Shown: positions 3,553 to 62,811 of the stretch, in pieces | How the letters are laid out: each line of letters begins with the position of its first letter | Numbering within the stretch: position 1 is the first letter of the stretch | Source: a virus | Length of the DNA stretch: 64,000 nt | UHGV virus genome: UHGV-0049167 | Strand: one strand, 5' to 3' | Position numbers and translations under genes: made by a program | The notes under the pieces: model-generated | Database searches by the model: none | Seen by the model: only the letters and a program-made list of their open reading frames with translations | Told to the model about the DNA's origin: nothing

Positions 3553-3566
3553 AAAAGGAGGCAGTG

Positions 3567-4228: not shown

Positions 4229-4242
4229 ACAATAAAAACAAT

Positions 4243-5461: not shown

Positions 5462-5462
5462 A

Positions 5463-7071: not shown

Positions 7072-7284
7072 ATGTACCAGAAAATTCTTTTAGTTTCGGT
7101 ATGGCTGGTTGTTTCACTTCTCGTCGTTTCGCTTTTATGTGAAATGCTCTCGGCAAGCGACACCATATCCAACATGTGCGGCTTCGTGCTTCTGATAGCA
7201 TACGCCCTGCTAAGCGTCAAGACACGGTTATTTACAAAATTCAAGTTCAATAACAAAAACAACAACAAAATCAAGTTCAAATGA
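7072..7284 (+). CDS. small membrane protein (partner of SPFH protein, NfeD-like role possible)
   Basis: Internal ATG; hydrophobic LLVSVWLVVSLLVVSLL and GFVLLIAYALL; ATGA overlap with next gene. Confidence 0.4.
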   Translation: MYQKILLVSVWLVVSLLVVSLLCEMLSASDTISNMCGFVLLIAYALLSVKTRLFTKFKFNNKNNNKIKFK

Positions 7285-8666: not shown

Positions 8667-8918
8667 ATGAGCTCCAACGTCCCGGCAGGCGCAGACTTCT
8701 GCCCTTACGCGCCATGGAACATGCCCGAGGCGGAGGAACGCGAGTGCGACGTCACGGTGACATACATCGACGACACAGGCGGAGACGCCACGCGCGGCGT
8801 CACAGTCCGGGCATACGGAGAGGATGACATCCCGCATGCCGTGTGTGACGCGCTCGGAGTCGAGCCGTGCCGGATTCTTGACATCAGGCTTCCTTTCAAC
8901 AGGCGCGTGATGTTTTAA
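8667..8918 (+). CDS. hypothetical protein
   Basis: ATG at 8667 preceded by AAGGAGG at 8654-8660; 83 aa. Confidence 0.35.
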   Translation: MSSNVPAGADFCPYAPWNMPEAEERECDVTVTYIDDTGGDATRGVTVRAYGEDDIPHAVCDALGVEPCRILDIRLPFNRRVMF

Positions 8919-8956
8919 TTAGCACAGAACATACAAACCAACCAGAATACAATTTT

Positions 8957-11937: not shown

Positions 11938-11939
11938 GT

Positions 11940-12350
11940 ATGGCAAACACGATAACAGGACGTGTCAGCAAGATAACGTCCGAACAGCAGATAACGGGCA
12001 TGTCGGGCAAGACGTTCACCAAGCGCACGCTTGTCCTCGACGCCTCGCGCTATGACCAGTATACAGGCGAGAAGAAATTCGACAACTATCCGAGTGTAGA
12101 GTTTTCAGGAGAGCTTATGAAAACCCTTGACAGCTTTAAGGAAGGCGATATGGTCGTGGTGTCGTTCGACATCAACGGCAGGGAGGTGAATGACGCGCAG
12201 ACCGGAGATGGCAGGTATTTCAACTCGATACGCGGCTACAGGATAGAGCGTTACGGGAACAGTGAGCGCACACAGGCACAGAGTACAGACAACGACCCGC
12301 AGGATTCCCTGCATGAGCAAGGGGATGCGGAAGGACAATTACCATTTTAA
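11940..12350 (+). CDS. hypothetical protein, possibly ssDNA-binding (DUF3127-like, tentative)
   Basis: 136 aa directly after recombination genes; family assignment from memory only. Confidence 0.5.
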   Translation: MANTITGRVSKITSEQQITGMSGKTFTKRTLVLDASRYDQYTGEKKFDNYPSVEFSGELMKTLDSFKEGDMVVVSFDINGREVNDAQTGDGRYFNSIRGYRIERYGNSERTQAQSTDNDPQDSLHEQGDAEGQLPF

Positions 12351-12363
12351 AATCAACAACATC

Positions 12364-12774
12364 ATGTATTACGAAATTACAGACCGTGTGACCCGCATGA
12401 AAGATGACGGCACGGAAAAAGAGACAAATGAACGCTATATCACGGACTGCCTTACATTCGCGGAGGCTGAGCGGAAAGGGATGGAGATGTATTCCGATTA
12501 CAATCTTGACGGTGACGTTGTGGCTATAAGACGTTCAAATATACGTGAAATCGTCAATGAGAATGAAGAAAAGGAATATTACTTCAGGGCAACAATAGCA
12601 GACATCTCCGTTGACGAGCATGGAAATGAGAAAGAGCTTAAATATTATGTGCTCATCCGTGCCGACGACCTCTCCGAGGCTACTGCCAAGGCAAACGAAT
12701 ACATGCGTCAGGGCTTGCAGGATATGCGTCTTGACGGCATCGTAAAGACAAGAATACTTGAACTCTTAAAATAA
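12364..12774 (+). CDS. hypothetical protein
   Basis: Internal ATG chosen to avoid overlap; 136 aa. Confidence 0.5.
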   Translation: MYYEITDRVTRMKDDGTEKETNERYITDCLTFAEAERKGMEMYSDYNLDGDVVAIRRSNIREIVNENEEKEYYFRATIADISVDEHGNEKELKYYVLIRADDLSEATAKANEYMRQGLQDMRLDGIVKTRILELLK

Positions 12775-12779
12775 CGACT

Positions 12780-13040
12780 ATGACACTGCAAGAAATCACC
12801 GAAACCATAAAGAAATGGCAGGAAGAAACTGGCAGCATATTTATCTTCCTTGCAAAAGATAACACGTCACCTGACGGCAAGAATATGATGTCCGCTTGCG
12901 TAGGTAAAGGCATTGATTTGTCATCCCTTATTGCTGCCGCCATGTCGGAGGACACCGATTTTGAAAGAATCTTCAAAATGGCGTTAACTGGATATGTACT
13001 TTACAACGCAACCAAACATTCATGCGGTTCGACGAACTGA
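12780..13040 (+). CDS. hypothetical protein
   Basis: 86-aa ORF. Confidence 0.45.
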   Translation: MTLQEITETIKKWQEETGSIFIFLAKDNTSPDGKNMMSACVGKGIDLSSLIAAAMSEDTDFERIFKMALTGYVLYNATKHSCGSTN

Positions 13041-13423
13041 AACGCCTATACACCGCGCCACGCACATACCGACCGCAGCATCACCACGAGGACAGCTTGC
13101 AGAAGGCGTGCGTGGCGTGGTTCGACTACACGCACAAGGACATAAGCCTTTACTTGCACCACTCGCCCAACGGCGGCTTCCACAACGCGAGCGAGGCGGC
13201 GAAATTCAAGGCGATGGGCGTGCGTGCCGGTTTCCCTGACCTCGTGCTGCTCGTGCCGAGAGGAAAATGTCCGTTCCTTGCCATAGAATTGAAATACGGC
13301 AGGAACAGACAGTCAGAGCGGCAGAAAGCCTACCAGGAGGCTCTGGAGGCAATCGGAGCGAGGTACGTGGTAGTGAGGACTCTGATAGAGTTCCGTAAAA
13401 CAGTTGAGGACTATTTGGAATGA
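13022..13423 (+). CDS. VRR-NUC domain nuclease
   Basis: Motif GFPDLVLLVPRGKCPFLAIELKYGRN matches VRR-NUC PD-(D/E)XK core. Confidence 0.7.
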   Translation: MRFDELKRLYTAPRTYRPQHHHEDSLQKACVAWFDYTHKDISLYLHHSPNGGFHNASEAAKFKAMGVRAGFPDLVLLVPRGKCPFLAIELKYGRNRQSERQKAYQEALEAIGARYVVVRTLIEFRKTVEDYLE

Positions 13424-14255
13424 CATGATGGACGAAGGATATATAACACTGAGCCGTCGTTTCTTCGCAAGCGAGATATGGAGGACGACCCGGGCTTTTA
13501 ACGAGAGCGAAGCGTGGCTCGACTTGATACAGTCGGCACGATTTGAGCCATCGGCGATAACATCGCGCATCGGGTGCTACGAAGTTACGTGGACGAGGGG
13601 ACAATATCCTGCATCCGTAAAGTTCCTCACAAAGAAATGGGGACGTTCCGAAAGGTGGGTGAAATCGTTTCTCGGAAAACTTCGCCGCGCCAAGATGATA
13701 ACCACTGACGCGGCGCAGGGGACTACCGTCATAACGCTTGTAAATTTTGACAGATATAACCCTATGCCAAGCCTGCCAGAAGAGGGCGGGCGACCTAACC
13801 CTGTGACCCAACTAAGCGAACTGACAGACAGTGGGTTACGTGGAATTGCGTCTAACCCCCTGACCCAACCCCGTCCAACCCCCGACCTACAAAAAAAAGA
13901 AAGATATAATATGCTTGAAGATAATAATGCGCGTATGCGTGTGCGCGAGGAAAGCTACGCCGATGAAGTCATGTCGTCACCCCAATGGATTGAGGACATG
14001 CAAAGGCTCTACAGAATACCTCCCGACATGCTCCGAGCCAAGTGCGACGAGTTCATGCTCGACTGCCGGTGCTATGGGCATACACACACAGACGCCGACG
14101 ACTTCAAGCGGCATTTCAACAACTGGCTGCGCGGCAGGCGTGACAGGGATTTAAAAAAACAGAAAGATGCAGACAATACCAAAGGACATGAAGATAGACG
14201 TCGCGGCTATGAAATCGCGGCTTCTGATGAGAAGGACTACTGCTCCACGTTTTAA
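13404..14255 (+). CDS. phage replication initiation / replisome organiser-like protein
   Basis: 283 aa; directly upstream of DnaC-like loader; contains iteron-like DNA repeats; assignment by context. Confidence 0.5.
   Translation: MRTIWNDMMDEGYITLSRRFFASEIWRTTRAFNESEAWLDLIQSARFEPSAITSRIGCYEVTWTRGQYPASVKFLTKKWGRSERWVKSFLGKLRRAKMITTDAAQGTTVITLVNFDRYNPMPSLPEEGGRPNPVTQLSELTDSGLRGIASNPLTQPRPTPDLQKKERYNMLEDNNARMRVREESYADEVMSSPQWIEDMQRLYRIPPDMLRAKCDEFMLDCRCYGHTHTDADDFKRHFNNWLRGRRDRDLKKQKDADNTKGHEDRRRGYEIAASDEKDYCSTF
13795..13869. repeat. iteron-like direct repeats CTAACC(CTG/CCC)TGACCCAAC x2 (16/18 identical, 57 bp apart) inside replication gene, followed by an A8 tract
   Basis: Repeats at 13795-13812 and 13852-13869 read directly; candidate origin. 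Confidence 0.4.
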
Positions 14256-14817
14256 GCTGGACGTCACCACGCGGCAGGCATATGACCTGATTACGGCGGC
14301 GTATTCAGCCGAAGTGGAGGCACGTAACGGAAAGTTCATCCTTGATGAGCATACAAAAACGCACGTGTGGTATGCGGCTAAGGCTCTGACCACGACGGAC
14401 AAGTTCGGCATAGCCTTCTGCGGCGAGGTGGGCAACGGCAAGACGACGCTAATGTCGGCAATATGCAACCTCACGTCATACCTCATGGGCAATGAGGACA
14501 GACACTTCAGGAAAATCAAGGCGACAGATATTGCGACGGTTTATGCAAACCGCAGTGATTTCAAGATTCTGTGCAACGATGAGTTCCTTGCCATTGATGA
14601 CATCGGCTGCGAACCGGCGGAAGTTATGTCGTACGGAAACATACTCACACCAACGGTGGAATTGCTTATGGCACGCTACGACATGCAGCTGTACACGATG
14701 TTCACCACCAACATCATGCCGAAGAAGATAAAGGACCGTTACGGAGAACGGATAGCGGACAGGCTGCGTGAGATGATGTATATTATACCGTTTACAAATC
14801 AGACGTACCGCCTATGA
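14167..14817 (+). CDS. DnaC/IstB-like AAA+ helicase loader
   Basis: Walker A FCGEVGNGKTTLMSAI; Walker B-like FLAIDDIG; start uncertain (89-nt overlap with upstream gene if 14167). Confidence 0.7.
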   Translation: MQTIPKDMKIDVAAMKSRLLMRRTTAPRFKLDVTTRQAYDLITAAYSAEVEARNGKFILDEHTKTHVWYAAKALTTTDKFGIAFCGEVGNGKTTLMSAICNLTSYLMGNEDRHFRKIKATDIATVYANRSDFKILCNDEFLAIDDIGCEPAEVMSYGNILTPTVELLMARYDMQLYTMFTTNIMPKKIKDRYGERIADRLREMMYIIPFTNQTYRL

Positions 14818-20576: not shown

Positions 20577-20862
20577 ATGGAACAAGACAACGTTATCGCA
20601 AAGGAATGCTCGCACTGCCACCGCACGTTGCCCGTCACGGAGTTCTACAAGAAGAAAGGCACGTCCGACGGTCTGCAATACTACTGCAAGCAGTGTCAAA
20701 TTGAGTTTAACAACGCCTACAAATGCAAGAAGAAGGCTTTCGGGGGGGGGGAATCCCGAACTCTCACGCTTCACGCCACGTCAGCTTATGGAGGAACTTA
20801 AAGCCCGCGGCTATACTGGAGAACTGAAATATGTACAAACAATAAATCTTGAAAGATTATGA
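20577..20862 (+). CDS. zinc-ribbon protein interrupted by a G10 tract; full-length product needs a 1-nt frame change at 20742-20751
   Basis: Frame 0 gives CSHCHRTLPVTEFYKKKGTSDGLQYYCKQCQ...GGG then early stop at 20801; +1 frame continues NPELSRFTPRQLMEELKARGYTGELKYVQTINLERL and ends at 20862 in ATGA overlap with next gene. Confidence 0.45.
20742..20751. repeat. G10 homopolymer tract inside coding sequence
   Basis: cgggggggggga read directly. Confidence 0.9.
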
Positions 20863-21815
20863 CACAGACCGGCATAATCGTCCTTCCGCATCAAATCAAA
20901 ATGAAAGCGTGTGAAATACAACTCGACTACGACACCGTAATGTCAAAGGTAAGCCGCCCGCTTGCAAGGAAGCTGGTACACTCCGTGGAGCTTTTGCGGA
21001 AGTCGGAGAAAATGGCGTTGCGCCTCGACCCCGAAAACGGCTTTTACCTTGCGTTCAGCGGCGGCAAGGACAGCCAATGCCTCTACCATGTCGCAAAGCT
21101 GGCCGGTGTCCGCTTCAAGGCTCACATGAACCTTACGAGCATAGACCCGCCCGAAGTCATCCGCTTCGTCAAGACGCAATACCCCGATGTGGAGCTAATC
21201 AAACCACGGATGAGCATTTACGAAATGGCTAAGAAAAAGCACATCTTGCCTACAAGGATTTTGCGCTGGTGTTGCGCCGAGTTCAAGGAAACGTCAGGCG
21301 TTGGCAAAATAACACTTGTCGGTGTGAGAAAAGAAGAAAGCGCACGGCGAGCCAAACGTGAGGAAATATCCACAGAGATAAAGGGCAAGCGCACTGAGGA
21401 AACCTTTGACCAATGGAGCGAACATGAGGAGAGCATGGTTGCGTGTGTCGGCGGTAAGGACAAAATCCTTGTATCGCCCATAATCTATTGGACGGAGCGC
21501 GACGTGTGGGAGTTCCTTAACGTGAACGGCATACCACACTGCGAACTCTACGACGAGGGTTATACACGCATTGGCTGCATCTGTTGCCCTATGTCGCAAC
21601 CATGGCAAAAAGCCAAAGAGATTAAACGTTGGCCGCACGTCAAACGCAATTGGATAAAGACAATCCAATGGCTGATAGACAACGGATATATCGACCACAA
21701 TTTCAACGACGCTGAAACAGGCTTTAGGTGGTGGATAAGCGGCAAGGGCTACAAGCAGTTCTACGCCGACGAGTTCCTGCAACAGAAAATTGAATTTAAA
21801 GACAAAGACCAATGA
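20859..21815 (+). CDS. phosphoadenosine phosphosulfate (PAPS) reductase family protein (PP-loop ATP pyrophosphatase fold)
   Basis: PP-loop motif YLAFSGGKDSQCLYHV; 318 aa. Confidence 0.7.
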   Translation: MTQTGIIVLPHQIKMKACEIQLDYDTVMSKVSRPLARKLVHSVELLRKSEKMALRLDPENGFYLAFSGGKDSQCLYHVAKLAGVRFKAHMNLTSIDPPEVIRFVKTQYPDVELIKPRMSIYEMAKKKHILPTRILRWCCAEFKETSGVGKITLVGVRKEESARRAKREEISTEIKGKRTEETFDQWSEHEESMVACVGGKDKILVSPIIYWTERDVWEFLNVNGIPHCELYDEGYTRIGCICCPMSQPWQKAKEIKRWPHVKRNWIKTIQWLIDNGYIDHNFNDAETGFRWWISGKGYKQFYADEFLQQKIEFKDKDQ

Positions 21816-21976
21816 AAGCGAGACATTGCGGCGAGTGCCGCCACTTCAAGAACGAGGACATCAACGGCGACGGCTGGTGCGGGAAGTACGACGTGGGCAG
21901 AAGATGTGGCAATGAGTGTTTGGCAAAGGAAAACAAAGGAAATACAAGGAAAATTTCCTCTAAAATCACAAGATAA
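21812..21976 (+). CDS. small Cys-rich protein (54 aa)
   Basis: ATGA overlap; MKARHCGECRHFKNEDINGDGWCGKYDVGRRCGNEC... Confidence 0.35.
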   Translation: MKARHCGECRHFKNEDINGDGWCGKYDVGRRCGNECLAKENKGNTRKISSKITR

Positions 21977-22009
21977 AATGGAGGGAAAGAATATTAATAC
22001 AAATAAGAT

Positions 22010-22372
22010 ATGACAAAAGAACAGATTGAAAAGGCGGCAACAGAAAGCTGTGTTATTGACAACAGCATCTTCAATCCAAAATACGTGCCGTATTATGAAC
22101 ATGGGTTTATAGATGGTGCCAACTGGCGCATCAACGCCGTGTGGCACAAGCCGTCGGCCTATGGCGATGAACTGACAAGGAACGTTGAGGTTATAGCAAA
22201 AACTAAAAGAGGCTATCGCTTTGGGATATTCGACATATTAGGCTGTTTCCACGAATATATAGCGTTTGTAAGCACATCAAATCTTGAATATGCGCTTTCC
22301 GATGTATTGGAATACGCGTATTTGGCTGATTTATTACCCGAAGGAAAGGAGGAAGAAGATGGAAGTCATTAA
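22010..22372 (+). CDS. hypothetical protein
   Basis: 120-aa ORF. Confidence 0.45.
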   Translation: MTKEQIEKAATESCVIDNSIFNPKYVPYYEHGFIDGANWRINAVWHKPSAYGDELTRNVEVIAKTKRGYRFGIFDILGCFHEYIAFVSTSNLEYALSDVLEYAYLADLLPEGKEEEDGSH

Positions 22373-22619
22373 GGTTACCAAAAGAACATACAGAGTGCTA
22401 CATGCTGTTGATAAGCCATTTTTGAAATTCGGACAGTTTCGCAGGACGAGAGAAAGTATAGGTCTTCCTGTTCAGAGGCGTTGTTTTAATTGCAACCGTA
22501 AGTTCAAGGATGACGATGATGTCTATTTAGTCATGCTAAAAGGAACTCTCAACAGATTGTTTTGTAAAAGCTGCAATGACAAGGCTTTGAATGATTTGAA
22601 GAAAGGAGGTCTGCAATGA
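22359..22619 (+). CDS. small Cys-containing protein
   Basis: Internal ATG preceded by AAGGAGG; CFNCNRKF...CKSC. Confidence 0.4.
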   Translation: MEVIKVTKRTYRVLHAVDKPFLKFGQFRRTRESIGLPVQRRCFNCNRKFKDDDDVYLVMLKGTLNRLFCKSCNDKALNDLKKGGLQ

Positions 22620-23365
22620 CAGCATACGTACGACAGGCTACGGCAGTGAGCAGCCAGCGCGCGATGGAGGTGTTCGAGCGTCTCAACTCACTCGTCAACC
22701 TTGTTATAGGAGCCGCCAACACAGTGGCGGGCAAGACAATGTTCGACGCCATAGAGAGAGTACGGAAGACACCGTACTACCGTTTCACTCTGAAGCGTCA
22801 CCTCAGGGAAGCGGAGAGGGCGTACTACGCCTATGAGAAACTTCACATCCAGAACTTCGGAGACCGGACGCAGCTCTTCTATGACTATCTTGACACAGTG
22901 GAGGAGGACATACAGCCGCATGTCGACATCCTGCGCTTCTCCATCAAGTCGCTGCTCGACAAGTACAGGCAGACCGAGACGGAGCTTAAATCCTATGTCG
23001 AGACCGCCCGCAATCTTCTGGCATACGCGGTACATCTTTACGATGTGCAGATAAAGACGGCTGACGAAGCCGCGCCCGGCATTCATTTTGACAAATACAT
23101 GAATCCTGCGCGGCTGTCACGCACCCTCTACCATTTTGAGCAGGCTGCTGACATGATATGCAAGACCGAGGACGGGATAACCATAGACCTGAACAAGGAC
23201 GCCAACGCCATGCTCGCCTTCCGTATCATAGAGAAGAAGCTGACGAGCGAGCGTTTCCTAAACCGTGTTGGCTATGAGGCGTTGAAGCTTAATCCTGAAT
23301 GCCGCAAATACATTACCGACGAGGATTGGAACGAGCTTGAAAGCAATTGCACGTCACAGGAATAG
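22616..23365 (+). CDS. hypothetical protein
   Basis: 249-aa ORF. Confidence 0.45.
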   Translation: MTAYVRQATAVSSQRAMEVFERLNSLVNLVIGAANTVAGKTMFDAIERVRKTPYYRFTLKRHLREAERAYYAYEKLHIQNFGDRTQLFYDYLDTVEEDIQPHVDILRFSIKSLLDKYRQTETELKSYVETARNLLAYAVHLYDVQIKTADEAAPGIHFDKYMNPARLSRTLYHFEQAADMICKTEDGITIDLNKDANAMLAFRIIEKKLTSERFLNRVGYEALKLNPECRKYITDEDWNELESNCTSQE

Positions 23366-48988: not shown

Positions 48989-50167
48989 ATGAAATTTGAC
49001 TTTAATAGTTCAAGATACGCCAAATTCTTTTCCGACAAGAGTAACAGGCGTTTCTTGCAGACATTCATTGATACGGAAGGTATCCTTTATACAAATTATG
49101 GTTGGTATCTGACGCAGGGACGACGAGCCTCTGCACCGACGCCTACTGATAACAGTGGTGTAGCCACGTTCACGGTCAAAGCCCGTAAGGCTGAAGCCGC
49201 TCCGCTTATGGACATGCGTGCTCCACTTGGTGACAGCAACCAGATGGATAAGGAAGGTCTGAGTTTCTACAGCGCGACCATTCCCGATTTCATCGCCCCA
49301 GGTTTTGTGGAGACTGCCATGGAACGTGAGTACCGCATCCGTCAGTTTGAACTGTTCGGTAACGATGCAGACATCGTAGCACAGTGGGTACATGAAGTAC
49401 AGATGCAGAAAGATTCTGCTGATGCCACTATGAATTATATGACCGCGCAACTTATGACCACAGGAAAGATAGATTACAGTACTATCGGACGTGGCATTAA
49501 AGCTCCGTTACATAAGGCAGACATCCCTGCGGAGAATTTTGTCAAGGCGGGTGAGAAAATATGGACTGCGGCTGACTGTAAGCTGCTTGAGCAAATGAAG
49601 AACATAGAGGACGCATACCGTGAGAAGCGCAACTATACCGGTGCGCTCGTTTGGCAGGTACCGCGTAAGATGTACTTTGAGATTATTCTCGAAAATGCAC
49701 AGGTTAAAGAACTTATCGCAGACTATAAAAAGAATCCACTGGCTTATCAGGCTACTACTGAAGGTCAGTCGTTCACAGAAGTCGCTTTCCGGCAGGCTGT
49801 AATAGACTATCAGGGTGTTTCGCCTATTGAGGTCGTTACTGAGAAAGAGCGTAACAAAACTCACACATCAGACACTTTCATCCATGGATGGAAAGAGAAC
49901 GTGGCGGTGCTTCGTCCAGCCGGAGACGCTGTCGAGTTTGAGTACACTGAAAATCTTGACCAGATAATGTTCAAGAAATATGGCTCCAAGGCTATAACCA
50001 AGGTGTTTGCCCAGACAAACAACGGGTTGGCTACCCTTGTGAATACGACACTTAACAATGGACAATATCAGGAATGGCATACAGACCTGATGATGTCAGC
50101 ATGTCCGGCTCTCATCGAGTTCCCTGACCATCTGATTGTAGACACATCAACAGCCGACACGGAATAA
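48989..50167 (+). CDS. putative major capsid protein
   Basis: 392 aa, size and position typical of HK97-fold capsid protein. Confidence 0.5.
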   Translation: MKFDFNSSRYAKFFSDKSNRRFLQTFIDTEGILYTNYGWYLTQGRRASAPTPTDNSGVATFTVKARKAEAAPLMDMRAPLGDSNQMDKEGLSFYSATIPDFIAPGFVETAMEREYRIRQFELFGNDADIVAQWVHEVQMQKDSADATMNYMTAQLMTTGKIDYSTIGRGIKAPLHKADIPAENFVKAGEKIWTAADCKLLEQMKNIEDAYREKRNYTGALVWQVPRKMYFEIILENAQVKELIADYKKNPLAYQATTEGQSFTEVAFRQAVIDYQGVSPIEVVTEKERNKTHTSDTFIHGWKENVAVLRPAGDAVEFEYTENLDQIMFKKYGSKAITKVFAQTNNGLATLVNTTLNNGQYQEWHTDLMMSACPALIEFPDHLIVDTSTADTE

Positions 50168-53266: not shown

Positions 53267-56200
53267 ATGAGCGGAGAAATTGGAAGCGCACTTGTAATAC
53301 CTGAAAGCGTACTTGACTCATTTAAAGATGCTGATGAATGGTTGGCAAAATTACAAAAGAGGATTTATGATACCGGTGATATTTCCGGAAGGTCTTTTGG
53401 TAAAATGGTAAATGGGACAACCCGTTTTTCCTCGGTGCTTGACGCTGTCATACAAAAGCTGAAGGAAGTGGAGAAATCGTCGGTAAACGCCTCTACGGCA
53501 TTTAATGCCATGAGCGGGGCAAAATTCGGGAATGCGGCAACGCAGGCGGAGAAGCTGAACACAAGTATAGTGAGAGCAGCGGAAAACATAGAGAGGCTCA
53601 CATCTGCTACAAGAGACAGACAAGGCGATTCCGGACTGAAGAACATCAGTGTTACATTAGATGCTCTATGGAAAAAATTAAAAGATACCCGCGTAGAGCT
53701 GGAGCTGTATTGGAAGTATATATCTACAGGTAAAAAGGACAATGTCGAATTTGGGCAAAAGGGACTTAATGAAGCATCCAAGACTGCTGATGCGCTTATG
53801 CGACAAATCACTGCTCTTGACGCTGCCTATAAACAGCTACGGAGGAGTTCAGCCAACGTAAATGACATGAAAGGGCAGACGCTCGCGGACATGCGACAGT
53901 CTGACATTTTGAGGAAAATGTCAGAATATTACCGTGATATGGAACGGTCGTCTGCTGCTGCGGCAAAAGAAGCCGAGAAGAGAGCCAGGTCGGAGGAAAA
54001 AGCGGCAAAAGCCCAATCTAAAATATACCAGCAACAGAACTATGCCCGTAATACCACATATGCGGGAGCGTTAAGCTTTGCTGAGGACGCAAATACGATA
54101 AACCGACGTACCCAAGCCATTAAATACTTGCAGGAGGCTCGCGCAGCACTGTCTGCCACAGACAGTGAGTATGCATCCAAGCTTCGTACCCTTAATGACC
54201 GTATCAAGCAGTTGAATGCCGCAAATAACGAGGCTATAGCGGGAAGCAAAAACCTTGTGAACGAGCATCGTCGTCTGTTCGATATAACCGGGCAGCTGTC
54301 ACGGTCGTTTGCGCTCCTGTTTTCAGTGTCGCAGATACGTGGATATATTGCAAATGTCGCTACGGTACGTGGGGAGTTCGAGATGTCACAACGCTCACTT
54401 GAAGCGATACTGCAAAACAAGACACAGGCTGACGAAATTTTTGCCAAGACGGTTGAACTTGCCGTTAAATCGCCTTTTCGCATAAAGGACTTGGTTCAGT
54501 ATACACGGCAGCTTGCCGCCTACCGTATAGAATCAGACAAACTGTTTGATACCACCAAACGCCTTGCTGATGTCTCTGCAGGTCTTGGCGTGGATATGCA
54601 GAGACTTATTCTTGCTTACGGACAGGTAAAGGCTGCCGCATATCTGCGCGGTTCGGAAGTACGCCAGTTCACGGAGGCAGGTGTGAATATGTACGGGGAA
54701 CTGCAACGTTATTTTCAGGAGGTCAAAGGTGAGGCATATACCACAGCGCAAATTGTTGACATGATAAGCAAGCGCATGGTGACGTTCCAAGACGTGGAAG
54801 CTGTCTTTGAGAGAATGACAAGTGACGGAGGCATCTTCTTCAACATGCAGGAGATACAGGCTGAAACCTTGCAGGGCAAGATAAGCAATTTCCAGGACTC
54901 TCTTGATGTCATGTTAAATTCCATAGGCAAGGCAAACGAAGGTCTCTTGAAGGGTGCGATAGATGGAGCGACGGCATTGCTTGAACATTGGGAGGAACTT
55001 GTGGACGTCGGCAAGGCACTTGCAGCCATACTTCTTACAATCAAAGCACGTTCAATGTTCCTGAACTCGACGTTGGGAATCGCTTTTACACAAGCAGACA
55101 CAAAAGGTCTCGCGCGTTACAAAGCCTTGTTTGTCAACGCTTTCACCAGCATGGGAAATGCTGTAAAATCTTTTGGGACAATCGCAAAAACATCTCTTGT
55201 CGGACTCGGAATTTTTGCTGCCATCGAATTGATAACAACCGCAATAGGTAAATGGAGCGATTATAATAAAAAAGTCAAGGAGGCGCAGGAAGATACCATA
55301 AAGACAAGAGAAGAAATAAGGAAAATATCAAGTGCTTATAATGACCTCGCGGATACGGCAACAACCGCTGACACAAAGGATTTGCAGAAAAACATTGACA
55401 AACGTAGGATTGCCCTGCAAAGGCTCATTGACAGCGCGGCGAAAGACGGTCTGGTATTAAAGATAAACGTGGAGGAGGTAAAAGATGAGGATTTAAACAA
55501 GACGTTTGACAGTGTAGAGAAGAAATATAAGGATTTCGTTGATGAACTGGAGATAATCAGGCGGAACTATGCCGAGAGTAACAGAAAATTGGTCTTTGAT
55601 GGAATTGACGATGACCGTGAAGATTACAAAAACGCTGTTCTTGACTTTCTTTCACAATCGTCCAAAATAGAAACAGCCGTTGCTATAGTGAATGCCAATT
55701 ATGACAAGGCAACGGCAGCCACAAAGAAATATTTTGACGAGATAAGGGCAGGGCAGAAAGCCGGCGAATCGAACCTTGATTATATGCGGCGAATGGCAGC
55801 AGCCTTGCAGCAAATGAATGTGCATTTAGGAGGAAATATTTATGCAACTCCAGGATGGCTGGACGGAGTGGAGGGGATGGTAGACATTGTGGACACCTAC
55901 AATTCTGTAGAGAAAGCCGGGGCTGCGTTGGAGAAAGAGTACGAGAAAGTGTTCGGGGACTTGCGTGATAAATACAAAAACGACCCGATTAAGATAAAAG
56001 CCGCTATTGATAAGGTCGCAGCTGAAGAGGATTGGAGCCAATATGACCGGGAGTTGGCTTACAGACATTTTGGAATCAATGTCAAGATAAACAAGGACAC
56101 TATGGAGCAGGAGGTATCGTGGGTTGATGACTACCTCTCGAATTTCTTTGCCAAGAAAAAGTACGGAGTCAGCCTTGTTGTAAAGGAAGTCACGGATGGA

Positions 56201-59014
56201 AAGGCTCTTAGCGAATTTCTTAAGAAGGGTGACGACGCAGCGAAAGCGGCTAAGAACTGGCAAGAGCTTGAAAGACGAATATCGGCTGTTGGTAAGAATG
56301 TCAAGCAAATTAAGGTTGATGACTCTATAAGAAAATTGTTTAAGGCTGGAGATATAAGGCTAAGTGGAGAAACAATAGATGTTTCGACATTAAAAGACGT
56401 AATCGCTGAATACAAGAAAGCCGCGACTGAAACGTCTGAAAGTCTTGGTGTTGACCCTTTTTCTAAAGAAAATGCCAAGAGTGCCAAGTCTGCCGCCAAG
56501 CAGCAGCGTGACATCCTTCAGGAGCAGATTTCTCTTCTGAAAGAGATGATGGAGGTGTATGAGAAACTGACGCCTATGATTAGCGATGAAAACGCGGCAA
56601 AGAGAGTCCTGGAAGAATACCGTGACGACCTTCAGTATGTGAAGATGGACAAGAGTATCATAGACTCGTTCGTGCCGACTAAAGAAGGTATGATAAAAGC
56701 CTTGAATCAGCTTTTGCCAACGATAACGGACTTCAAGAAAAAGGCTGAGGTGATGAAGCTGATAAGCAAGTATGAGATAGAAATCGACTCTGACGAATTG
56801 AAAAAGCAGCTTGATGGTGCCGAGAAGGAAGCTGACCGCATATTCTCCAATCTCGACCTATTTAGAAAGCTGAAGGAGCAAGGGCTTGACGACGGTGCAA
56901 TACAGCGTATGTTCGGCAATCTGACAATGAGTTTTGAGGATGCGAGGAAACAGCTTGACTCCCTGTATGCCGACAAGCAGGGCGGGGATTGGACTAAGCA
57001 GAAAGAAGAGCAGTTCGATAAGCTCACGAAGAAAATCAACGATTTCAACCTTGCACAGACTCAGGACATCCTAAAGGATTACGGCAAACAGCTTGACGAA
57101 CGCCTGAAACTTGACCTGTGGTATATCAATGAGCGCGCAAAAATTGAGAATAAAGAGCTGAAGTTTACGCCAGAGCAACGTGAAGAATATATACAAGCCC
57201 TTGACAGGCAAAAAGCAGAAAAAGCAGCAAATCTTGAATGGGAGCAGTTTAAGAATACCGAAACATACATTGAGATGTTCAACAATCTCGACAATGTGTC
57301 CTCACACATGTTGGAGCGCATGAGAGAGAAGCTTGAAGCCCTTAAAAGTTCTCTGAAAGGTCTGTCCCCTGAACAGCTTAAAGTCATTCAGGAACAGATA
57401 AACAAAATCGACGATGAGATACTGGAACGCAATCCGTTGAAAGATTTTGGTAAAAATCTCAATCAATTTTCCAATGCTTCAAAAAGTATAAAAGAACTTG
57501 AAAAAACATATGATGTTGAGAAGCAAAAACTTGAAGAACTTGAAGACAAACTCGATGAAGCGGCTGAACACGTCAACAAGTTAAACGAGGCATATGCAAA
57601 ACTCTCCGACAGTGACAAGCGAGGTGATGCTGGGACAGAACTCAATAATGAGATAAATGACGCGAAAAGGCAATACGACGAAATAAATAAAAAGGTTAAT
57701 GAGCAGGAGAAAAACGTTGCCAATGTCACGAAAGAACTCAATAAGTGGCAAAGAATGCTCAAAACTCTTGGAGGGCAGTTTGAGTATATCGGTTCATGGT
57801 TCGGTGCCATTTCATCAGGAGTAACCGAAATATCCGCCAACCTTGAAAACGTTTTCGGCACAATGTCTGACGGCATCCGTGACACAATCGAGAGCATTTC
57901 CGATATTGCAGGAGGATTGGGACAGACTGCCAGCGGCATAGGGCAACTTGTCGCGCCAGGTGGATTGCTCAACCCCTCGGCATGGGTAAGCACCATTGGC
58001 GGTATTACTAAGACCATAGGCTCATTATTCAATATCGGAGACAAGAAAAAAGAACGTCAGATAAAAAGACTGACAGAGCAGGTCGAGAGCCTCCAACATG
58101 CCTATGAAAACCTTGAACAAGAACAGTCTGATGCATGGAGCATTACAGAACTTGATAAATACACGGAGAAGCTGAAGGATAATCTCGAAATGCAAAATGC
58201 CAACCTGCGTGCTATGATTGCTGCGGAGGAGGACAAGAAGAAAAAGGATAAGGACCGCATAAAGGAGTGGCGGGAACAGATAGAGGAAAATGAGAAAGCA
58301 ATAAAAAAGGCACAAGACACATTGCAGGAGGAAATTGGAGGATTCGGCTCAAAGGCAAATTATAAGTCTGCGGCACAAGCTTTTGCGGACGCATGGGTTG
58401 ACGCATTCAATGAAGGTTCTGACACACTCGCTGCACTTGAAAGCCAATTGGATGAGGTGTTTGATAATTTGTTAAAAAAACAAGTCAGCTATCGTGTGGC
58501 AGACAATATTATCAACAGTTTGTTGAAGCCTCTTGACGATGCGCTTGTGAATTATGACGGTTCATCGTCTTCATTGCAAAGTCTGAGACAATCATTGGAG
58601 AAAATACGCGAGGAATCTCCAGAAACGCTTAAAGCGTTTGACGAAGCCATGAAATCAATCGCAGATATCCTCGGGTTTAAATTTGGTGCCGGTGCGGATT
58701 CTGAATCAAGCCTTTCTGCCCTGCAGCAGGGCATACAAGGAGTAACGGAACAAACGGCTGAAGCCCTTGAAGCTTTGCTTAACTCTATTCGCTTCTTTGT
58801 CGCGAAACAGACTGAGGACATAGCTGCCATCCGAGCCTTGTTGTCGGGCAGTCAGTCCATCGACATGTCCTCAACCGACAATCCGATGGTTACCATACTG
58901 CGTGAACAGGCAGGGTATTTAAGAAGTATGTTATCTATAATGACTGATATGTGGAACCAAGCCTTTGCTCCGGGACATCCCAAAGGCGGCAGAGGATTAA
59001 AGGTTTTCATGTAG
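53267..59014 (+). CDS. tail tape measure protein
   Basis: 1915 aa, long coiled-coil regions, hydrophobic central segments (SLVGLGIFAAIELITTAIG). Confidence 0.85.
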   Translation: MSGEIGSALVIPESVLDSFKDADEWLAKLQKRIYDTGDISGRSFGKMVNGTTRFSSVLDAVIQKLKEVEKSSVNASTAFNAMSGAKFGNAATQAEKLNTSIVRAAENIERLTSATRDRQGDSGLKNISVTLDALWKKLKDTRVELELYWKYISTGKKDNVEFGQKGLNEASKTADALMRQITALDAAYKQLRRSSANVNDMKGQTLADMRQSDILRKMSEYYRDMERSSAAAAKEAEKRARSEEKAAKAQSKIYQQQNYARNTTYAGALSFAEDANTINRRTQAIKYLQEARAALSATDSEYASKLRTLNDRIKQLNAANNEAIAGSKNLVNEHRRLFDITGQLSRSFALLFSVSQIRGYIANVATVRGEFEMSQRSLEAILQNKTQADEIFAKTVELAVKSPFRIKDLVQYTRQLAAYRIESDKLFDTTKRLADVSAGLGVDMQRLILAYGQVKAAAYLRGSEVRQFTEAGVNMYGELQRYFQEVKGEAYTTAQIVDMISKRMVTFQDVEAVFERMTSDGGIFFNMQEIQAETLQGKISNFQDSLDVMLNSIGKANEGLLKGAIDGATALLEHWEELVDVGKALAAILLTIKARSMFLNSTLGIAFTQADTKGLARYKALFVNAFTSMGNAVKSFGTIAKTSLVGLGIFAAIELITTAIGKWSDYNKKVKEAQEDTIKTREEIRKISSAYNDLADTATTADTKDLQKNIDKRRIALQRLIDSAAKDGLVLKINVEEVKDEDLNKTFDSVEKKYKDFVDELEIIRRNYAESNRKLVFDGIDDDREDYKNAVLDFLSQSSKIETAVAIVNANYDKATAATKKYFDEIRAGQKAGESNLDYMRRMAAALQQMNVHLGGNIYATPGWLDGVEGMVDIVDTYNSVEKAGAALEKEYEKVFGDLRDKYKNDPIKIKAAIDKVAAEEDWSQYDRELAYRHFGINVKINKDTMEQEVSWVDDYLSNFFAKKKYGVSLVVKEVTDGKALSEFLKKGDDAAKAAKNWQELERRISAVGKNVKQIKVDDSIRKLFKAGDIRLSGETIDVSTLKDVIAEYKKAATETSESLGVDPFSKENAKSAKSAAKQQRDILQEQISLLKEMMEVYEKLTPMISDENAAKRVLEEYRDDLQYVKMDKSIIDSFVPTKEGMIKALNQLLPTITDFKKKAEVMKLISKYEIEIDSDELKKQLDGAEKEADRIFSNLDLFRKLKEQGLDDGAIQRMFGNLTMSFEDARKQLDSLYADKQGGDWTKQKEEQFDKLTKKINDFNLAQTQDILKDYGKQLDERLKLDLWYINERAKIENKELKFTPEQREEYIQALDRQKAEKAANLEWEQFKNTETYIEMFNNLDNVSSHMLERMREKLEALKSSLKGLSPEQLKVIQEQINKIDDEILERNPLKDFGKNLNQFSNASKSIKELEKTYDVEKQKLEELEDKLDEAAEHVNKLNEAYAKLSDSDKRGDAGTELNNEINDAKRQYDEINKKVNEQEKNVANVTKELNKWQRMLKTLGGQFEYIGSWFGAISSGVTEISANLENVFGTMSDGIRDTIESISDIAGGLGQTASGIGQLVAPGGLLNPSAWVSTIGGITKTIGSLFNIGDKKKERQIKRLTEQVESLQHAYENLEQEQSDAWSITELDKYTEKLKDNLEMQNANLRAMIAAEEDKKKKDKDRIKEWREQIEENEKAIKKAQDTLQEEIGGFGSKANYKSAAQAFADAWVDAFNEGSDTLAALESQLDEVFDNLLKKQVSYRVADNIINSLLKPLDDALVNYDGSSSSLQSLRQSLEKIREESPETLKAFDEAMKSIADILGFKFGAGADSESSLSALQQGIQGVTEQTAEALEALLNSIRFFVAKQTEDIAAIRALLSGSQSIDMSSTDNPMVTILREQAGYLRSMLSIMTDMWNQAFAPGHPKGGRGLKVFM

Positions 59015-59098: not shown

Positions 59099-59416
59099 AT
59101 GCCTACCGTAGAAGTGCCGAGGCGTATGACTCCGACCTACGATAGGCATTATTATTTAAATAAGATTTGTTTGGCATCTGCAAATTTAAAAAAATTTTTT
59201 GATATGACAAGATTTTCAGGGAAGAATAGACGAGAAAGTACAATAATTCGTGATAACAATGTTCATAAGCTGTATCACGATTTATGTTTAGAGCTTGGCA
59301 ATGTGTCAACAGTTGTCTCAAAGCAATATATTTATGAACGGATAAGCGAAAAAATTGGACTGGGACGGCAAACTATAGCATTTATCCTTAACCACACAAA
59401 ACCAACAAAAAAATAG
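59099..59416 (+). CDS. small protein with C-terminal HTH-like segment
   Basis: Internal ATG; VSKQYIYERISEKIGLGRQTIAFILNH; AT-rich context. Confidence 0.35.
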   Translation: MPTVEVPRRMTPTYDRHYYLNKICLASANLKKFFDMTRFSGKNRRESTIIRDNNVHKLYHDLCLELGNVSTVVSKQYIYERISEKIGLGRQTIAFILNHTKPTKK

Positions 59417-59552
59417 TATTTAATAATTACCGTTTTTAAGGTATTTGTTGTGTTTTTATCGGTAAGTAACTTTTCATTTAGGTTTAGGTTTTTGCGAACT
59501 TTGCTGCACGGTTAATATTGACCGCAACAACACAACAAACAATCTGAACTTT

Positions 59553-60506
59553 ATGGAAAGAACTTATGTTTTTAACAGTGACGGCAACTCCGGAGGCGCG
59601 CGTTATGACATCAATGCTATGCTTCCCGGAATGCTGAATAGGGGAATTGACCCTGGTGTGCTGGCACTGATGAATGGCAACGGTGGCTTCGGTGGGCAAA
59701 ACGGAATCTGGGGAGTGATTTATCTTGCAATCGTTGCAAGTATCTTCGGGTGGAACAACGGAGGCTTCGGAGGTTTCGGCTCACGTGGCGGCAACGGACT
59801 GCCAGCGGAACTCGCAGGCAACGCGGGACGCGAACTGCTGATGCAAGCAATCCAAGGCAACGCGAGTGCAATCAACCAAATCGCGTCAACGCTCAACTGC
59901 TCGAGCCAGCAAATCGAGAGTGCACTGTGCAACATCCAGAACAGCATTGGACTGACCGGAACACAGATTATCAACGCCATTCAGAGCGGTGACAACGGTA
60001 TCGTAAACCAGCTGTCAACCTGCTGCTGCAACATCCTTCAGGCAGTGGAGCGTCAGGGCTACGAAAGCCGCCTGGCAACATGCGAGCAGACGCACACGCT
60101 CGTAGACACCGCGAACAACAACGCCCTCTCGCTCCGTGACGGCGCAACGGCCAACACCAACGCCATACTCGCGAAGCTCGACGCGATGCAGAACCAGGCG
60201 CTGCAGGACAAAATCGCAGCCCTCACGGCAGAGAAGGCAACGCTCCAGAGCGAAATCTCACAGCGCAACCAGAACGCCACTATCCTCAACGCCGTAGGCC
60301 AGCAAATCGCACCTTTGGCAGCAGGACTGCAGACACTCCAGAGCGACGTCGACGGTATCAAATGCAAGTTGCCCAACACCGTACCTGTACAATGGCCTAA
60401 TATAGTCGGTGTAAACACAGACTTATACAAGGCTGCCGCAGTGGGTGCCGCCGCAGGCCAGTACGCAGGTTATGGATGCGGATACACGCCGACGTTTTGG
60501 AACTAA
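59553..60506 (+). CDS. Gly-rich / Gln-Asn-rich coiled-coil protein with hydrophobic helix and Cys triplet
   Basis: 317 aa; GGFGG repeats flanking IWGVIYLAIVASIFGW; STCCCNILQ; visibly GC-richer than neighbours. Confidence 0.5.
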   Translation: MERTYVFNSDGNSGGARYDINAMLPGMLNRGIDPGVLALMNGNGGFGGQNGIWGVIYLAIVASIFGWNNGGFGGFGSRGGNGLPAELAGNAGRELLMQAIQGNASAINQIASTLNCSSQQIESALCNIQNSIGLTGTQIINAIQSGDNGIVNQLSTCCCNILQAVERQGYESRLATCEQTHTLVDTANNNALSLRDGATANTNAILAKLDAMQNQALQDKIAALTAEKATLQSEISQRNQNATILNAVGQQIAPLAAGLQTLQSDVDGIKCKLPNTVPVQWPNIVGVNTDLYKAAAVGAAAGQYAGYGCGYTPTFWN

Positions 60507-60525
60507 GCAAGGAAAGGAGGCTACC

Positions 60526-60951
60526 ATGTGGGAATTTTTCTTAGGACTTCCTTTCAACTTCCCCGCGCTCGGGCGAAACAACTACAACACCATACCGAGC
60601 GCAGGGGTCACCGTCGGCACCGACGCGGTTACGATAGAACTGCCCGCGCACTCGCTCTACAGGCGCAACTACGTAGGCTCGTTCTACCTCAACCTACGCA
60701 CGGCCATCCCTACGGGAACGACCACAACGCTGCCCGTCAACATCAGCTCCAACGGAGTGTCGCTCCCCCTTATGGAAACCGAGGGCACGCCAGTGACGGT
60801 GGCCAACATCACCGGGGCGGGCATCTACGAAATCCACTACAACCGCTACACCAACGAGCTGTATCTCGTGAACGCAGGTTACAGACAGGCTGCTGCTGCG
60901 GCAGCTACACAGGAAGCGGCTACGGCAGACTTTGACAAATTCAGAAAATAA
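60526..60951 (+). CDS. hypothetical protein (GC-richer gene)
   Basis: Internal ATG preceded by AAGGAGG; 141 aa. Confidence 0.45.
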   Translation: MWEFFLGLPFNFPALGRNNYNTIPSAGVTVGTDAVTIELPAHSLYRRNYVGSFYLNLRTAIPTGTTTTLPVNISSNGVSLPLMETEGTPVTVANITGAGIYEIHYNRYTNELYLVNAGYRQAAAAAATQEAATADFDKFRK

Positions 60952-60972
60952 CAATATTAAAGCAACACAAGG

Positions 60973-61503
60973 ATGTTTCAGAATCTACGAGAAAATTCGC
61001 AGTTGTTCATACTGCATAAGGACGGCAATCCATATTTAGAATATGGTACAGTGTCAAGCGTTACAGCTCCCAAGCCAAAATATCCGGTGTCTCCGGCTCC
61101 TATGGGGACATTCCCGCAGATGGAGATGGTGGTGGACATTATGGTGAACATAGGCGGGCAGGTAGTCCCGCTTAAGGACTTGAAAGCTAACGCCGACATA
61201 GACGACAACGGTACGGTAGTGGTATCATGCTCAAAAGACGCGATTAACAGTGAGGTGTCCATGATGAGACAAAAGAGTATGGATATTCTTAGCAGTACAG
61301 ATTATCACAAGAATGTCATGGCATGCTGTGACAAGATGCTGAATGACCTTAATCCTGAAATAGCTGCCAAGCGTAAGCAGGATGAAGAGATTAGAGGCAT
61401 GAAGGAGCAGATGAATACCATAGTGAAAAGTATGAATATGCTTGCCGAGCAGAACAGGCAGCTGATGGAACAGCTCGGAGTTTCTGATACATCGCAAAAA
61501 TAA
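60973..61503 (+). CDS. hypothetical protein
   Basis: 176-aa ORF. Confidence 0.45.
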   Translation: MFQNLRENSQLFILHKDGNPYLEYGTVSSVTAPKPKYPVSPAPMGTFPQMEMVVDIMVNIGGQVVPLKDLKANADIDDNGTVVVSCSKDAINSEVSMMRQKSMDILSSTDYHKNVMACCDKMLNDLNPEIAAKRKQDEEIRGMKEQMNTIVKSMNMLAEQNRQLMEQLGVSDTSQK

Positions 61504-61510
61504 ATAAACT

Positions 61511-61798
61511 ATGGGAATGTGGACAATAATGGAGGAAGGACGTGACGGATACGGTCGCGACTTCGGAATGAGAGGCGGTGAGTCTGAACAGGCCTACAGA
61601 CAGGGATTTGAGGATGGCTGCCGCCACGGTTACAAGAAGGCAATGATGGAGGCTCATGAAGATATAGGCTTCCGTAACGGACGTTCTTATGGCGGTGGGT
61701 CATACGGCAATCGTATGTCGGGCTACCAGCCCGAGGATACGTGGTCTGATGACATGGGCGAACGCCGTCATCGTAGGGCTAACGGACAGTTCTATTAA
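61511..61798 (+). CDS. hypothetical Gly/Arg-rich protein
   Basis: 95-aa ORF. Confidence 0.4.
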   Translation: MGMWTIMEEGRDGYGRDFGMRGGESEQAYRQGFEDGCRHGYKKAMMEAHEDIGFRNGRSYGGGSYGNRMSGYQPEDTWSDDMGERRHRRANGQFY

Positions 61799-61859
61799 AA
61801 AACAGGACGAAGAGTGAGGAAATGAAATCTTCACTCTTCATTTTTCATTCTTAAAATAA

Positions 61860-62282
61860 ATGATTATGCAAAGACTTGACACATATGATGAGATGCCGGA
61901 AGGAATGAGGCGATATCTATCTCAGTACGGATGGCATTTTTCAAAAAAACTCTGTGAATGTGCCATAAAAGACATGCGCACACTCAACAAGGTCACAGGC
62001 AAGAAAGAGCCGATGGAGATTATTTCCAAGGAAACAGTGGAAGATCTGTTGAAAAAATATAACTTGAATGTTGATAATTGTAAGGGTTATGATGCCGTCT
62101 ACGTATGGCATATGGCAAAGGCGGATTATTTTAAAAGCTCTGTTGTTGACGAGGCTCATCTGGCGTTGTTCGTGAAAGATTATCTGGACGATACCGATGG
62201 TTACGACGGCGTGGCTCTTACACGCTATCTTGCTGACTGTATCGGAAACGGGACTCCTGTCGAATGGGAAGATGTATTATGA
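61860..62282 (+). CDS. hypothetical protein
   Basis: 140-aa ORF. Confidence 0.4.
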   Translation: MIMQRLDTYDEMPEGMRRYLSQYGWHFSKKLCECAIKDMRTLNKVTGKKEPMEIISKETVEDLLKKYNLNVDNCKGYDAVYVWHMAKADYFKSSVVDEAHLALFVKDYLDDTDGYDGVALTRYLADCIGNGTPVEWEDVL

Positions 62283-62707
62283 TTGTACAGGATTTCGGTT
62301 TGCCAGACTATGACTGGAGGATTAGGGTATACTATGCTGTGACGACTTATTGGACAGATGTCATAGTTAATGACCTCATGCGTATCGGTTGTGGGGGATG
62401 TGAGTTGCGTGATGCTTATATGAGTCTCAGACGCGGAGAACTTGATACCGAACTTACATATTCCAACCGAAGCACGCATGAGAGCATCATGGTTATCGGT
62501 CTAACATCATCAGCCGCGCAGTTCCAGAACTCACTCGACCATGAGAAAGGGCATCTCATCAAACATATATCTGTCGCCTTCGGTCTTGACCCTTATGGTG
62601 AAGAGCAACAGTATTTAAGCGGGGAAATAGGGCAGAGGATGTTTCCCGTTGCCCGGAAGTTCCTTTGTGAGCATTGCAGGAGAAAACTTTATGAAGAAAG
62701 ATATTGA
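62279..62707 (+). CDS. hypothetical protein with HExxH-like motif (DHEKGHLIKH)
   Basis: Internal ATG in ATGA overlap with previous gene. Confidence 0.4.
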   Translation: MIVQDFGLPDYDWRIRVYYAVTTYWTDVIVNDLMRIGCGGCELRDAYMSLRRGELDTELTYSNRSTHESIMVIGLTSSAAQFQNSLDHEKGHLIKHISVAFGLDPYGEEQQYLSGEIGQRMFPVARKFLCEHCRRKLYEERY

Positions 62708-62811
62708 CATATTGATAGAAAAAGCGGACGGCATGAAGTACTGCGACTTCTGCCGCTTGCTCTTCGTCCTCTATTGGAACTTAGGTACGGAATAAGAGGA
62801 TTTCCCTAAAA

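Follow-up and report, generated by a model that had tools for sequence, protein, structure and literature searches.

A mobile six-gene phage cassette whose first two genes may encode an accessory stalk-and-knob fibre

The gene pair ORF1-ORF2, which occupies 59553-60951 of the window (the whole stretch of viral DNA analysed here, 64,000 nucleotides) exactly as first delimited, constitutes genes 1 and 2 of a six-gene operon and is not a stand-alone island. This operon, hereafter the cassette, has a conserved order, defined boundaries, recurrent upstream signals and a foreign composition, and is spread over unrelated phages. We tentatively propose that it is a mobile accessory operon of gut Caudoviricetes with its own promoter and 5' hairpin, and that the two genes at its head may form a stalk-and-knob fibre of the virion, a reading that we hold to be possible, if somewhat short of probable. 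The genes and the extent of the mobile unit are as follows:

59204..59416, + strand: ORF0, 70 aa, AT-rich, with a presumptive HTH-like C-terminal half (ISEKIGLGRQTIAFILNH)
59487..62797, + strand: extent of the mobile unit, by DNA homology (74-77% identity) to prophages L055 and L056
59553..60506, + strand: ORF1, 317 aa, phrog_16490
60526..60951, + strand: ORF2, 141 aa, phrog_31654
60973..61503, + strand: ORF3, 176 aa, phrog_28898; N-terminal ~100 residues beta-rich by eye, then a coiled-coil-like C-terminal segment
61511..61798, + strand: ORF4, 95 aa, phrog_34053; low-complexity, Gly/Arg/Tyr/Asp-rich, with a basic C-terminal RRxRRxxNGxY-type motif
61860..62282, + strand: ORF5, 140 aa, DUF7841 (PF25223)
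62264..62707, + strand: ORF6, 147 aa, predicted divergent zincin-type metallopeptidase

Gene order and boundaries of the cassette

The cassette order is kept in about 120 loci distributed over Bacteroidales prophages, IMG/VR viral contigs, the Bacteroides phage C3_41T2LP and the Crassvirales. ORF1-2-3-(4)-5-6 are colinear in most of the 41 genome loci and in 80 of 80 IMG/VR loci, and the same order is found in C3_41T2LP, whose cassette products are WLZ21182 to WLZ21177, in cr116_1 and in a circular 61.8-kb element of B. thetaiotaomicron; ORF3 adjoins ORF2 in 39 of 46 loci and in 78 of the 80 IMG/VR loci. This order persists down to about 30% identity, and the genes flanking the cassette are otherwise unrelated between carriers, which include both temperate and crAss-like phages. 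ORF1 by itself, free of the rest of the cassette, is also encountered in viruses assigned to Methanomassiliicoccales. The cassette is absent from the equivalent site of crAss001 and is hence dispensable.

Its boundaries are defined by two prophages, L055 and L056, whose flanks and terminase bear no relation to those of the window phage: the homology block comprises the six genes and the promoter region. Their ORF1 is 79-90% identical to that of the window. At the DNA level, ORF1 and ORF2 of the window are ~84% identical to the closer of the two prophages and 77-83% to the other, whereas ORF3, ORF5 and ORF6 are 65-73% identical to the GC-rich versions in these prophages; thus, the window cassette is a mosaic.

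Composition

The two genes had been described as G/C-richer than their surroundings, especially at third codon positions, and a sliding-window and codon-usage analysis bears this out as a significant deviation. The GC content of 59553-60951 is 0.561 (56.1%), as against a window mean of 0.463 (46.3%) and 0.35-0.45 in the flanks, a level attained by just 0.8% of 1.4-kb windows. Synonymous GC3 is 0.646 in ORF1 and 0.721 in ORF2, whereas redrawing synonymous codons from the phage's late-gene usage, with the amino acids of each protein fixed, predicts 0.49 +/- 0.03 (z = 5.8) and 0.48 +/- 0.04 (z = 6.0), respectively. As the amino acids are held fixed, this excess of z ~6 resides at synonymous sites and does not reflect Gly and Ala content alone, which rules out an amino-acid artefact as its source. 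High expression is an unlikely cause too, since GC3 is only 0.49 in the gene at 48989-50167, which is a homologue of the capsid gene of C3_41T2LP and probably encodes the major capsid protein.

By the same resampling, ORF3-ORF6 of the window show no GC3 deviation. The small upstream gene ORF0 is unusually AT-rich (z = -4.3), which sharpens the compositional edge before ORF1. Other GC3-rich blocks are present in the window, namely the genes of 2265-14817 and 20859-23365 (GC3 0.63-0.72, with one gene at 0.56). The GC excess of ORF1 and ORF2 is in part a family trait: homologues are GC-richer than the neighbouring genes in 39 of 41 loci for ORF1 and 30 of 33 for ORF2. Separately, amino-acid content accounts for part of the family-wide excess. 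In L055 and L056 the entire cassette is a GC3 island, with values of 0.69-0.81 vs 0.24-0.42 in the flanking genes. The earlier suggestion of an acquired cargo is therefore supported by the DNA shared with prophages of unrelated terminase and by the GC3 island found there, while its "two-gene" extent gives way to six genes.

Upstream and internal signals

A small HTH gene usually precedes the cassette and belongs to one of three interchangeable regulator families: the DnaA-C-like C7, C8, or C14, which matches Pfam HTH_17. The window representative, ORF0, whose start follows the gene call in locus L004, is a member of C8, homologues of which lie upstream of ORF1 in 8 genome loci; it has no match in Pfam and aligns with the C7 family across the HTH region. 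Between it and ORF1, and once within the cassette, are the following signals:

59468..59503, + strand: putative Bacteroides-type promoter, with a -33-like element AACTTTTC at 59468-59475 and a -7 box GAACTTTG at 59496-59503
59509..59524, + strand: 5' hairpin CGGTT-AATATT-GACCG at the predicted 5' end of the transcript
61809..61839, + strand: terminator-like hairpin, a 12-bp stem followed by a T-run, between ORF4 and ORF5, from a consensus scan only

The -7 box has the consensus TAnnTTTG (also nAnnTTTG), and across 11 aligned upstream regions from divergent loci its TTTG is invariant and AACT..T at least 90% conserved; the distance from box to hairpin is 10 +/- 1 nt in 14 of 16 loci. From this pattern we infer that the cassette has its own Bacteroides-type promoter, with transcription predicted to start near 59505-59509. 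The equivalent position in at least 18 loci has a stem of 5-8 bp capped by a conserved RNTATT loop. Stem positions 2-4 show 3-4 types of Watson-Crick pair, and in 9 of 16 loci the stem closes with a T-G pair; the 100% pairing figure is biased by the selection of these loci for having a stem. The hairpin is present as a single copy in the window, its fold taken alone is unremarkable (z = -1.3), and an Rfam scan of the cassette, hairpin included, returned no match. A role as operator for the upstream HTH protein is disfavoured by the covariation of the arms, the conservation of the loop and the occurrence of identical arms next to different HTH families.

The cassette thus displays features typical of morons and other mobile cassettes: the predicted -7 box, 5' hairpin and terminator-like hairpin suggest an autonomous transcription unit, and a deviant composition (z ~6, with the GC3 island of L055/L056) goes together with 74-77% DNA identity between unrelated carriers.

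The ORF1 protein

Across its family, ORF1 is conserved in the N-terminal half and variable in the C-terminal half, and the sequence features first noticed in it are all confirmed. A segment IKCKxPxTVxVPY is also conserved. The conserved N-terminus bears the motifs xTYVFxD and GxDPxxLxAM; GGFGG at residues 44-48 and again at 69-73 brackets a 14-residue hydrophobic core (52-65); Asn and Gln make up 18% of the residues, in keeping with the Gln/Asn-rich coiled coil that had been described; two helical repeats end in LNC and CCC, respectively; and the C-terminus is Gly/Tyr/Trp-rich. Among 66 aligned representatives of clusters at 50% identity, C159 of the CCC triplet (157-159) is invariant, and C157 and C158 are at least 90% conserved. 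AF2 models residues 148-272 as a single helix of ~125 residues, with pLDDT >90 at ~180-250 and 87-88 up to 270, in a full model that is mediocre (pLDDT 68.7, pTM 0.31) and that in a Foldseek search of PDB recovered nothing at E <= 0.001. Sequence searches with the family against Pfam, NCBIfam and PDB yielded only noise of the coiled-coil type (Baculo_PEP_C in 11 of 66 members, HA2, OspC). Homologues in crAss records are labelled "viral fiber" or "spike", in some cases "spike protein/glycoprotein".

Across the family the hydrophobic core spans 13-16 residues (median 13, median Kyte-Doolittle 2.26), follows a 49-residue N-tail and is flanked by about 0.4 and 1.0 Lys/Arg; this length and the paucity of flanking charges indicate that it is not a canonical membrane helix. 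The proposal of a membrane-active protein is accordingly weakened, if still possible.

In profile searches ORF1 aligns weakly and collinearly with residues 5-85 of influenza HA2 (E = 0.006-0.06, 18.5 bits), below the threshold. HA2 and spanins share with ORF1 the succession of a Gly-rich hydrophobic peptide, a Gly/aromatic linker and Gln/Asn-rich helices. ORF1 and ORF2 could be a two-subunit spike with the class I fusion logic of enveloped viruses, in which ORF2 would be the variable receptor-binding head and ORF1, possibly matured by ORF6, would supply the coiled coil and an internal, Gly-rich, fusion-peptide-like segment that perturbs or fuses host membranes at entry, exit or vesicle formation. 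Such a spike would amount to a portable membrane-fusion module in non-enveloped tailed viruses of gut Bacteroidales and methanogenic archaea; we consider it very unlikely. Unlike HA2, ORF1 is devoid of a signal peptide, an ectodomain processing site and a C-terminal membrane anchor, and its hydrophobic segment is internal, ~50 residues from the N-terminus. Homology to class I fusion proteins as such was rejected, given that the HA2 matches reach no better than the above E-values and Foldseek found nothing at its cutoff.

ORF2 and the remaining products

ORF2 starts at the ATG at 60526, an alternative GTG at 60445 that overlaps ORF1 having been rejected. Modelled from a comparatively shallow alignment, it is predicted to adopt an eight-strand beta-sandwich similar to domains known from the tail fibres of phages. 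No other cassette member varies as much, and ORF2 contains no Cys, and hence no lipobox. A part of the predicted structure of a DUF7841-named protein from a crAss-like virus (BFVD A0A8S5LXP6) matches the ORF2 fold.

ORF3 gives only weak, sub-threshold matches of the coiled-coil type, to heptad repeat B of paramyxovirus F and to syntaxin. ORF6 has the HExxH motif and conserved downstream third ligand expected of a zincin: H93-E94-x-x-H97 and E113 are invariant in 28 homologues, with C135 and C138 of a CxxC motif at least 90% conserved. Its Pfam matches (Peptidase_M78, MPTase-PolyVal, DUF6782) are all sub-threshold and point to no specific family, and PDB sequences gave no match. Profile searches of PDB with ORF2, ORF3, ORF5 and ORF6 returned nothing significant, and none of the six proteins is accounted for by a family in Pfam, PDB, PADLOC or NCBIfam. 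Hydrophobic signal-like or membrane-spanning segments were seen neither in scans of ORF2 and ORF3 nor by eye in ORF4-ORF6.

The potential peptidase, together with the upstream signals, raises an alternative in which the cassette is a set of co-travelling regulatory and counter-defence genes comparable to acr-aca loci: expression would come in a burst governed by the HTH gene and hairpin, a host factor would be the substrate of the zincin, and ORF1 and ORF2 would be non-structural. The dyad element at +1 of a strong-looking promoter, the small HTH gene beside it, the intact active site of ORF6, the presence in both temperate and crAss-like carriers, and the Peptidase_M78 and DUF4411 neighbours in L055 would fit such a set. 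We nevertheless consider it improbable, because the gene order is fixed over a wide divergence, whereas counter-defence loci usually shuffle their content; the ORF2-like fold within a DUF7841-named protein points to physical cooperation; the above properties of the hairpin arms and loop fit an RNA hairpin better than an operator; and a 317-aa coiled-coil protein is unlike the known small inhibitors.

Genomic neighbourhoods

The window tape measure gene (53267-59014) had been taken to lie directly before the gene pair, but 538 bp made up of the 70-aa ORF0 and two spacers intervene. Among the ~120 loci the cassette follows the tape measure gene only in the window phage and near-identical copies. 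Its usual position is 3' of the lysis genes and before or beside the integrase, co-oriented with the late genes in most loci. In cr116_1 and cr109_1 the cassette comes after a holin gene, with an L,D-carboxypeptidase gene just upstream in the former and ~5 kb off in the latter; in C3_41T2LP it follows recombination genes. In L055 and L056 its neighbours are the integrase and an HTH/Peptidase_M78/DUF4411 block, and the tail genes are a long way off. Just upstream of the cassette, 73 of 80 IMG/VR loci encode either DUF6808 or a C5 protein with a lipobox and a C-terminal TMD. The cassette is separate from both the tail-tip and the lysis genes of the window phage: the probable tail-tip genes (a 2720-aa protein and its neighbours) lie in a divergent operon, and the lysis genes, encoding a 208-aa TM-plus-coiled-coil protein, Amidase_3 and DUF6808, with holin-like proteins of 87 and 77 aa at 30.2-30.8 kb, occupy 26.4-30.8 kb, ~30 kb away.

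These neighbourhoods bear on the preliminary description of the pair as a specialised tail-tip or bacteriocin-like protein. A distal-tail protein of the window siphovirus would suit the location downstream of its tape measure gene, and a bacteriocin with its immunity protein would suit the Gly-rich ORF1 N-terminus, whose DPxxLxxM-x-GG loosely recalls double-glycine leaders, and the variable gene immediately 3' of it. Both are extremely unlikely. Synteny contradicts the former, in that the post-tape-measure site is confined to the window lineage and the probable tail-tip genes are elsewhere; homology and structure searches furnished no clear homology to standard distal-tail proteins, with ORF1 and ORF2 matching no Dit, Tal or receptor-binding-protein family in PHROGs and Pfam, where the results were the unknown-function phrog_16490 and phrog_31654 and nothing above threshold, respectively. 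As for the bacteriocin, no toxin or pore domain, C39 peptidase/ABC exporter or other transporter, or signal peptide was found in the cassette, and ORF2 is predicted to be a soluble beta-sandwich like those of fibre proteins and not an immunity-protein fold.

The location directly 3' of the lysis genes in most loci is in line with a lysis accessory, in which ORF1 would fuse or disrupt membranes at the last step of lysis or in its timing, in the manner of a spanin, a T4-type large holin or a class I fusion protein, with ORF2 and ORF3 as regulators. The weak matches of ORF1 to HA2 and of ORF3 to paramyxovirus F and syntaxin also lean this way, but are sub-threshold and of a coiled-coil or compositional kind. 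We judge this function to be quite unlikely: the window lysis genes are unlinked to the cassette; the two are likewise uncoupled in L055 and L056; the archaeal homologue excludes a dependence on the outer membrane; and many carriers already have a multi-TM holin candidate, an endolysin and a spanin-like gene, with a regulator gene separating the cassette from these where they are adjacent. ORF1 was specifically rejected as a spanin on account of its 13-16-residue core, the missing lipobox of ORF2, the separate C5 or DUF6808 gene upstream in most loci and the archaeal homologue; unlike spanins, it has no lipoprotein partner, and its carriers have spanin-like genes of their own. It was rejected as a holin on account of its 317-aa length without a canonical TMD and the multi-TM holin candidates that sit by endolysins elsewhere.

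A possible stalk-and-knob fibre

Our best guess, based on the structural models, is that ORF1 and ORF2 form an accessory stalk-and-knob fibre built of two polypeptides. ORF1 would be the elongated, probably oligomeric stalk, with a coiled-coil helix modelled at ~185 A in length and a conserved N-terminal docking region that carries a short hydrophobic plug. ORF2 would be the variable globular head, a predicted beta-sandwich of the phage tail-fibre kind, the variability of which may set binding specificity; recombination between versions of the cassette, as in ORF1-ORF2 of the window, could swap that specificity. As the six products lack export signals, they would assemble in the cytoplasm, late in infection, and then attach to the virion to form an accessory fibre or adhesin on it, which is the least certain part of the proposal. 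ORF3-ORF6 may act as adaptor, chaperone or processing factors, with ORF6 predicted to be an active zincin.

The combination of a conserved N-terminal and a variable C-terminal half in ORF1 is the typical pattern of fibres and supports this reading, as do the single long helix in the ORF1 model, the strong divergence of ORF2 and the fibre or spike labels of the crAss homologues. A role in the virion and not in the cell is further favoured by the lack of signal-like or membrane-spanning segments in ORF2-ORF6, by the non-canonical hydrophobic core of ORF1, by the late-gene co-orientation in most loci and by the span of the ORF1 family over bacterial and archaeal hosts, which have HK97-type virions in common but differ in their envelopes. 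Several observations argue against it: the cassette moves with the ORF1 N-terminus and promoter across siphovirus-like and crAss podovirus-like modules, which is unusual for lineage-specific fibre anchors; it lies by the integrase and distant from the tail genes in L055/L056; its host-type promoter and dedicated small regulator are moron-like; a zincin, a DUF and a low-complexity protein are unusual fibre accessories; and the ORF1 model is mediocre and has no fold neighbour in PDB.

A precedent for the proposed architecture is offered by reovirus sigma-1, the adenovirus fibre and phage fibres of the T7 gp17 type, in which a C-terminal knob tops a coiled-coil or collagen stalk. As proposed for ORF1, they have a short conserved N-terminal docking region, which in reovirus sigma-1 is a hydrophobic virion anchor, and a long coiled-coil-type stalk (modelled in ORF1) with conserved N- and variable C-terminal halves; as proposed for ORF2, they have a variable globular beta-sandwich head. 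Unlike these fibres, the cassette would encode stalk and head as separate polypeptides. Moreover, there is no common sequence family or significant PDB fold match of the ORF1 model, ORF1 is transferred with its N-terminus and promoter among unrelated virion types, and its invariant CCC and GGFGG-flanked core are absent from such fibres.

The cassette also recalls morons and other accessory cassettes, such as the lambda b-region including stf/tfa, HK97 gp15 and prophage conversion genes. These too are dispensable, of deviant GC, equipped with their own promoter and terminator-like signals, placed between lysis or tail genes and the integrase, and transferred between phages. The differences are that the cassette has six genes in an order fixed down to ~30% identity, occurs in crAss-like phages, has ORF1 homologues in archaeal viruses and encodes no product belonging to a characterised moron family.

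This resemblance leads to an alternative in which the cassette is directed at the host: ORF1 would be tethered to the membrane by its hydrophobic segment and, with ORF2-ORF6, would protect the infected or lysogenic cell for example by superinfection exclusion, defence against other phages or envelope remodelling, and its promoter would make its expression independent of virion assembly. Consistent with this are the putative host-type promoter, small HTH gene and terminator-like hairpin, the site between lysis genes and integrase at the prophage end, the foreign composition, the transfer of the entire cassette among unrelated virion types, its dispensability as seen in crAss001, and the strong hydrophobicity of the ORF1 core. 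We regard it as doubtful in view of the shortness of that core and its want of flanking positive charges, the fibre-protein-like fold predicted for ORF2, the archaeal-virus homologue, which makes a target peculiar to the envelope of Bacteroidales less plausible, and the conserved six-gene order and crAss-like carriers, which are unusual for exclusion morons. Further, no PADLOC model matched any of seven proteins, the output being coiled-coil noise at E >= 0.01, and a known anti-phage defence system was rejected on this basis.

Another comparison is with portable capsid decoration proteins such as T4 Hoc and phage L Dec, which resemble the cassette in that they are dispensable accessories with genes located away from the core morphogenesis block. 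Since the geometry is common to HK97-type capsids, decoration proteins could serve across phage lineages, and such use matches the observed distribution of the cassette. Unlike the single genes of these proteins, the cassette has six, with no Ig-like or OB-fold capsid-binding domain detected.

Prevalence and implications

The ORF1 family is very common in gut viromes: its members fall into 773 clusters when grouped at 50% identity and into more than 3,800 at 90%. It is found in at least 587 stretches of IMG/VR contigs and in at least four Crassvirales families. Every product of the cassette is "hypothetical" in PHROGs, Pfam, RefSeq and GenBank, and no study of these genes was found in the literature on C3_41T2LP, the cassette DUFs and PHROG, the crAss "viral fiber" or Bacteroides exclusion morons. 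Their recognition as one mobile six-gene unit with its own putative promoter turns scattered DUFs into a testable system. If an accessory fibre, the cassette would be a swappable module for host range or gut retention in dominant phages of the human gut; if directed at the host, it would be a new exclusion or membrane system common to bacterial and archaeal viruses. Cultured carriers are available in C3_41T2LP (on B. uniformis), B. thetaiotaomicron BFG-119 (NZ_CP103284) and Paraprevotella xylaniphila YIT 11841.

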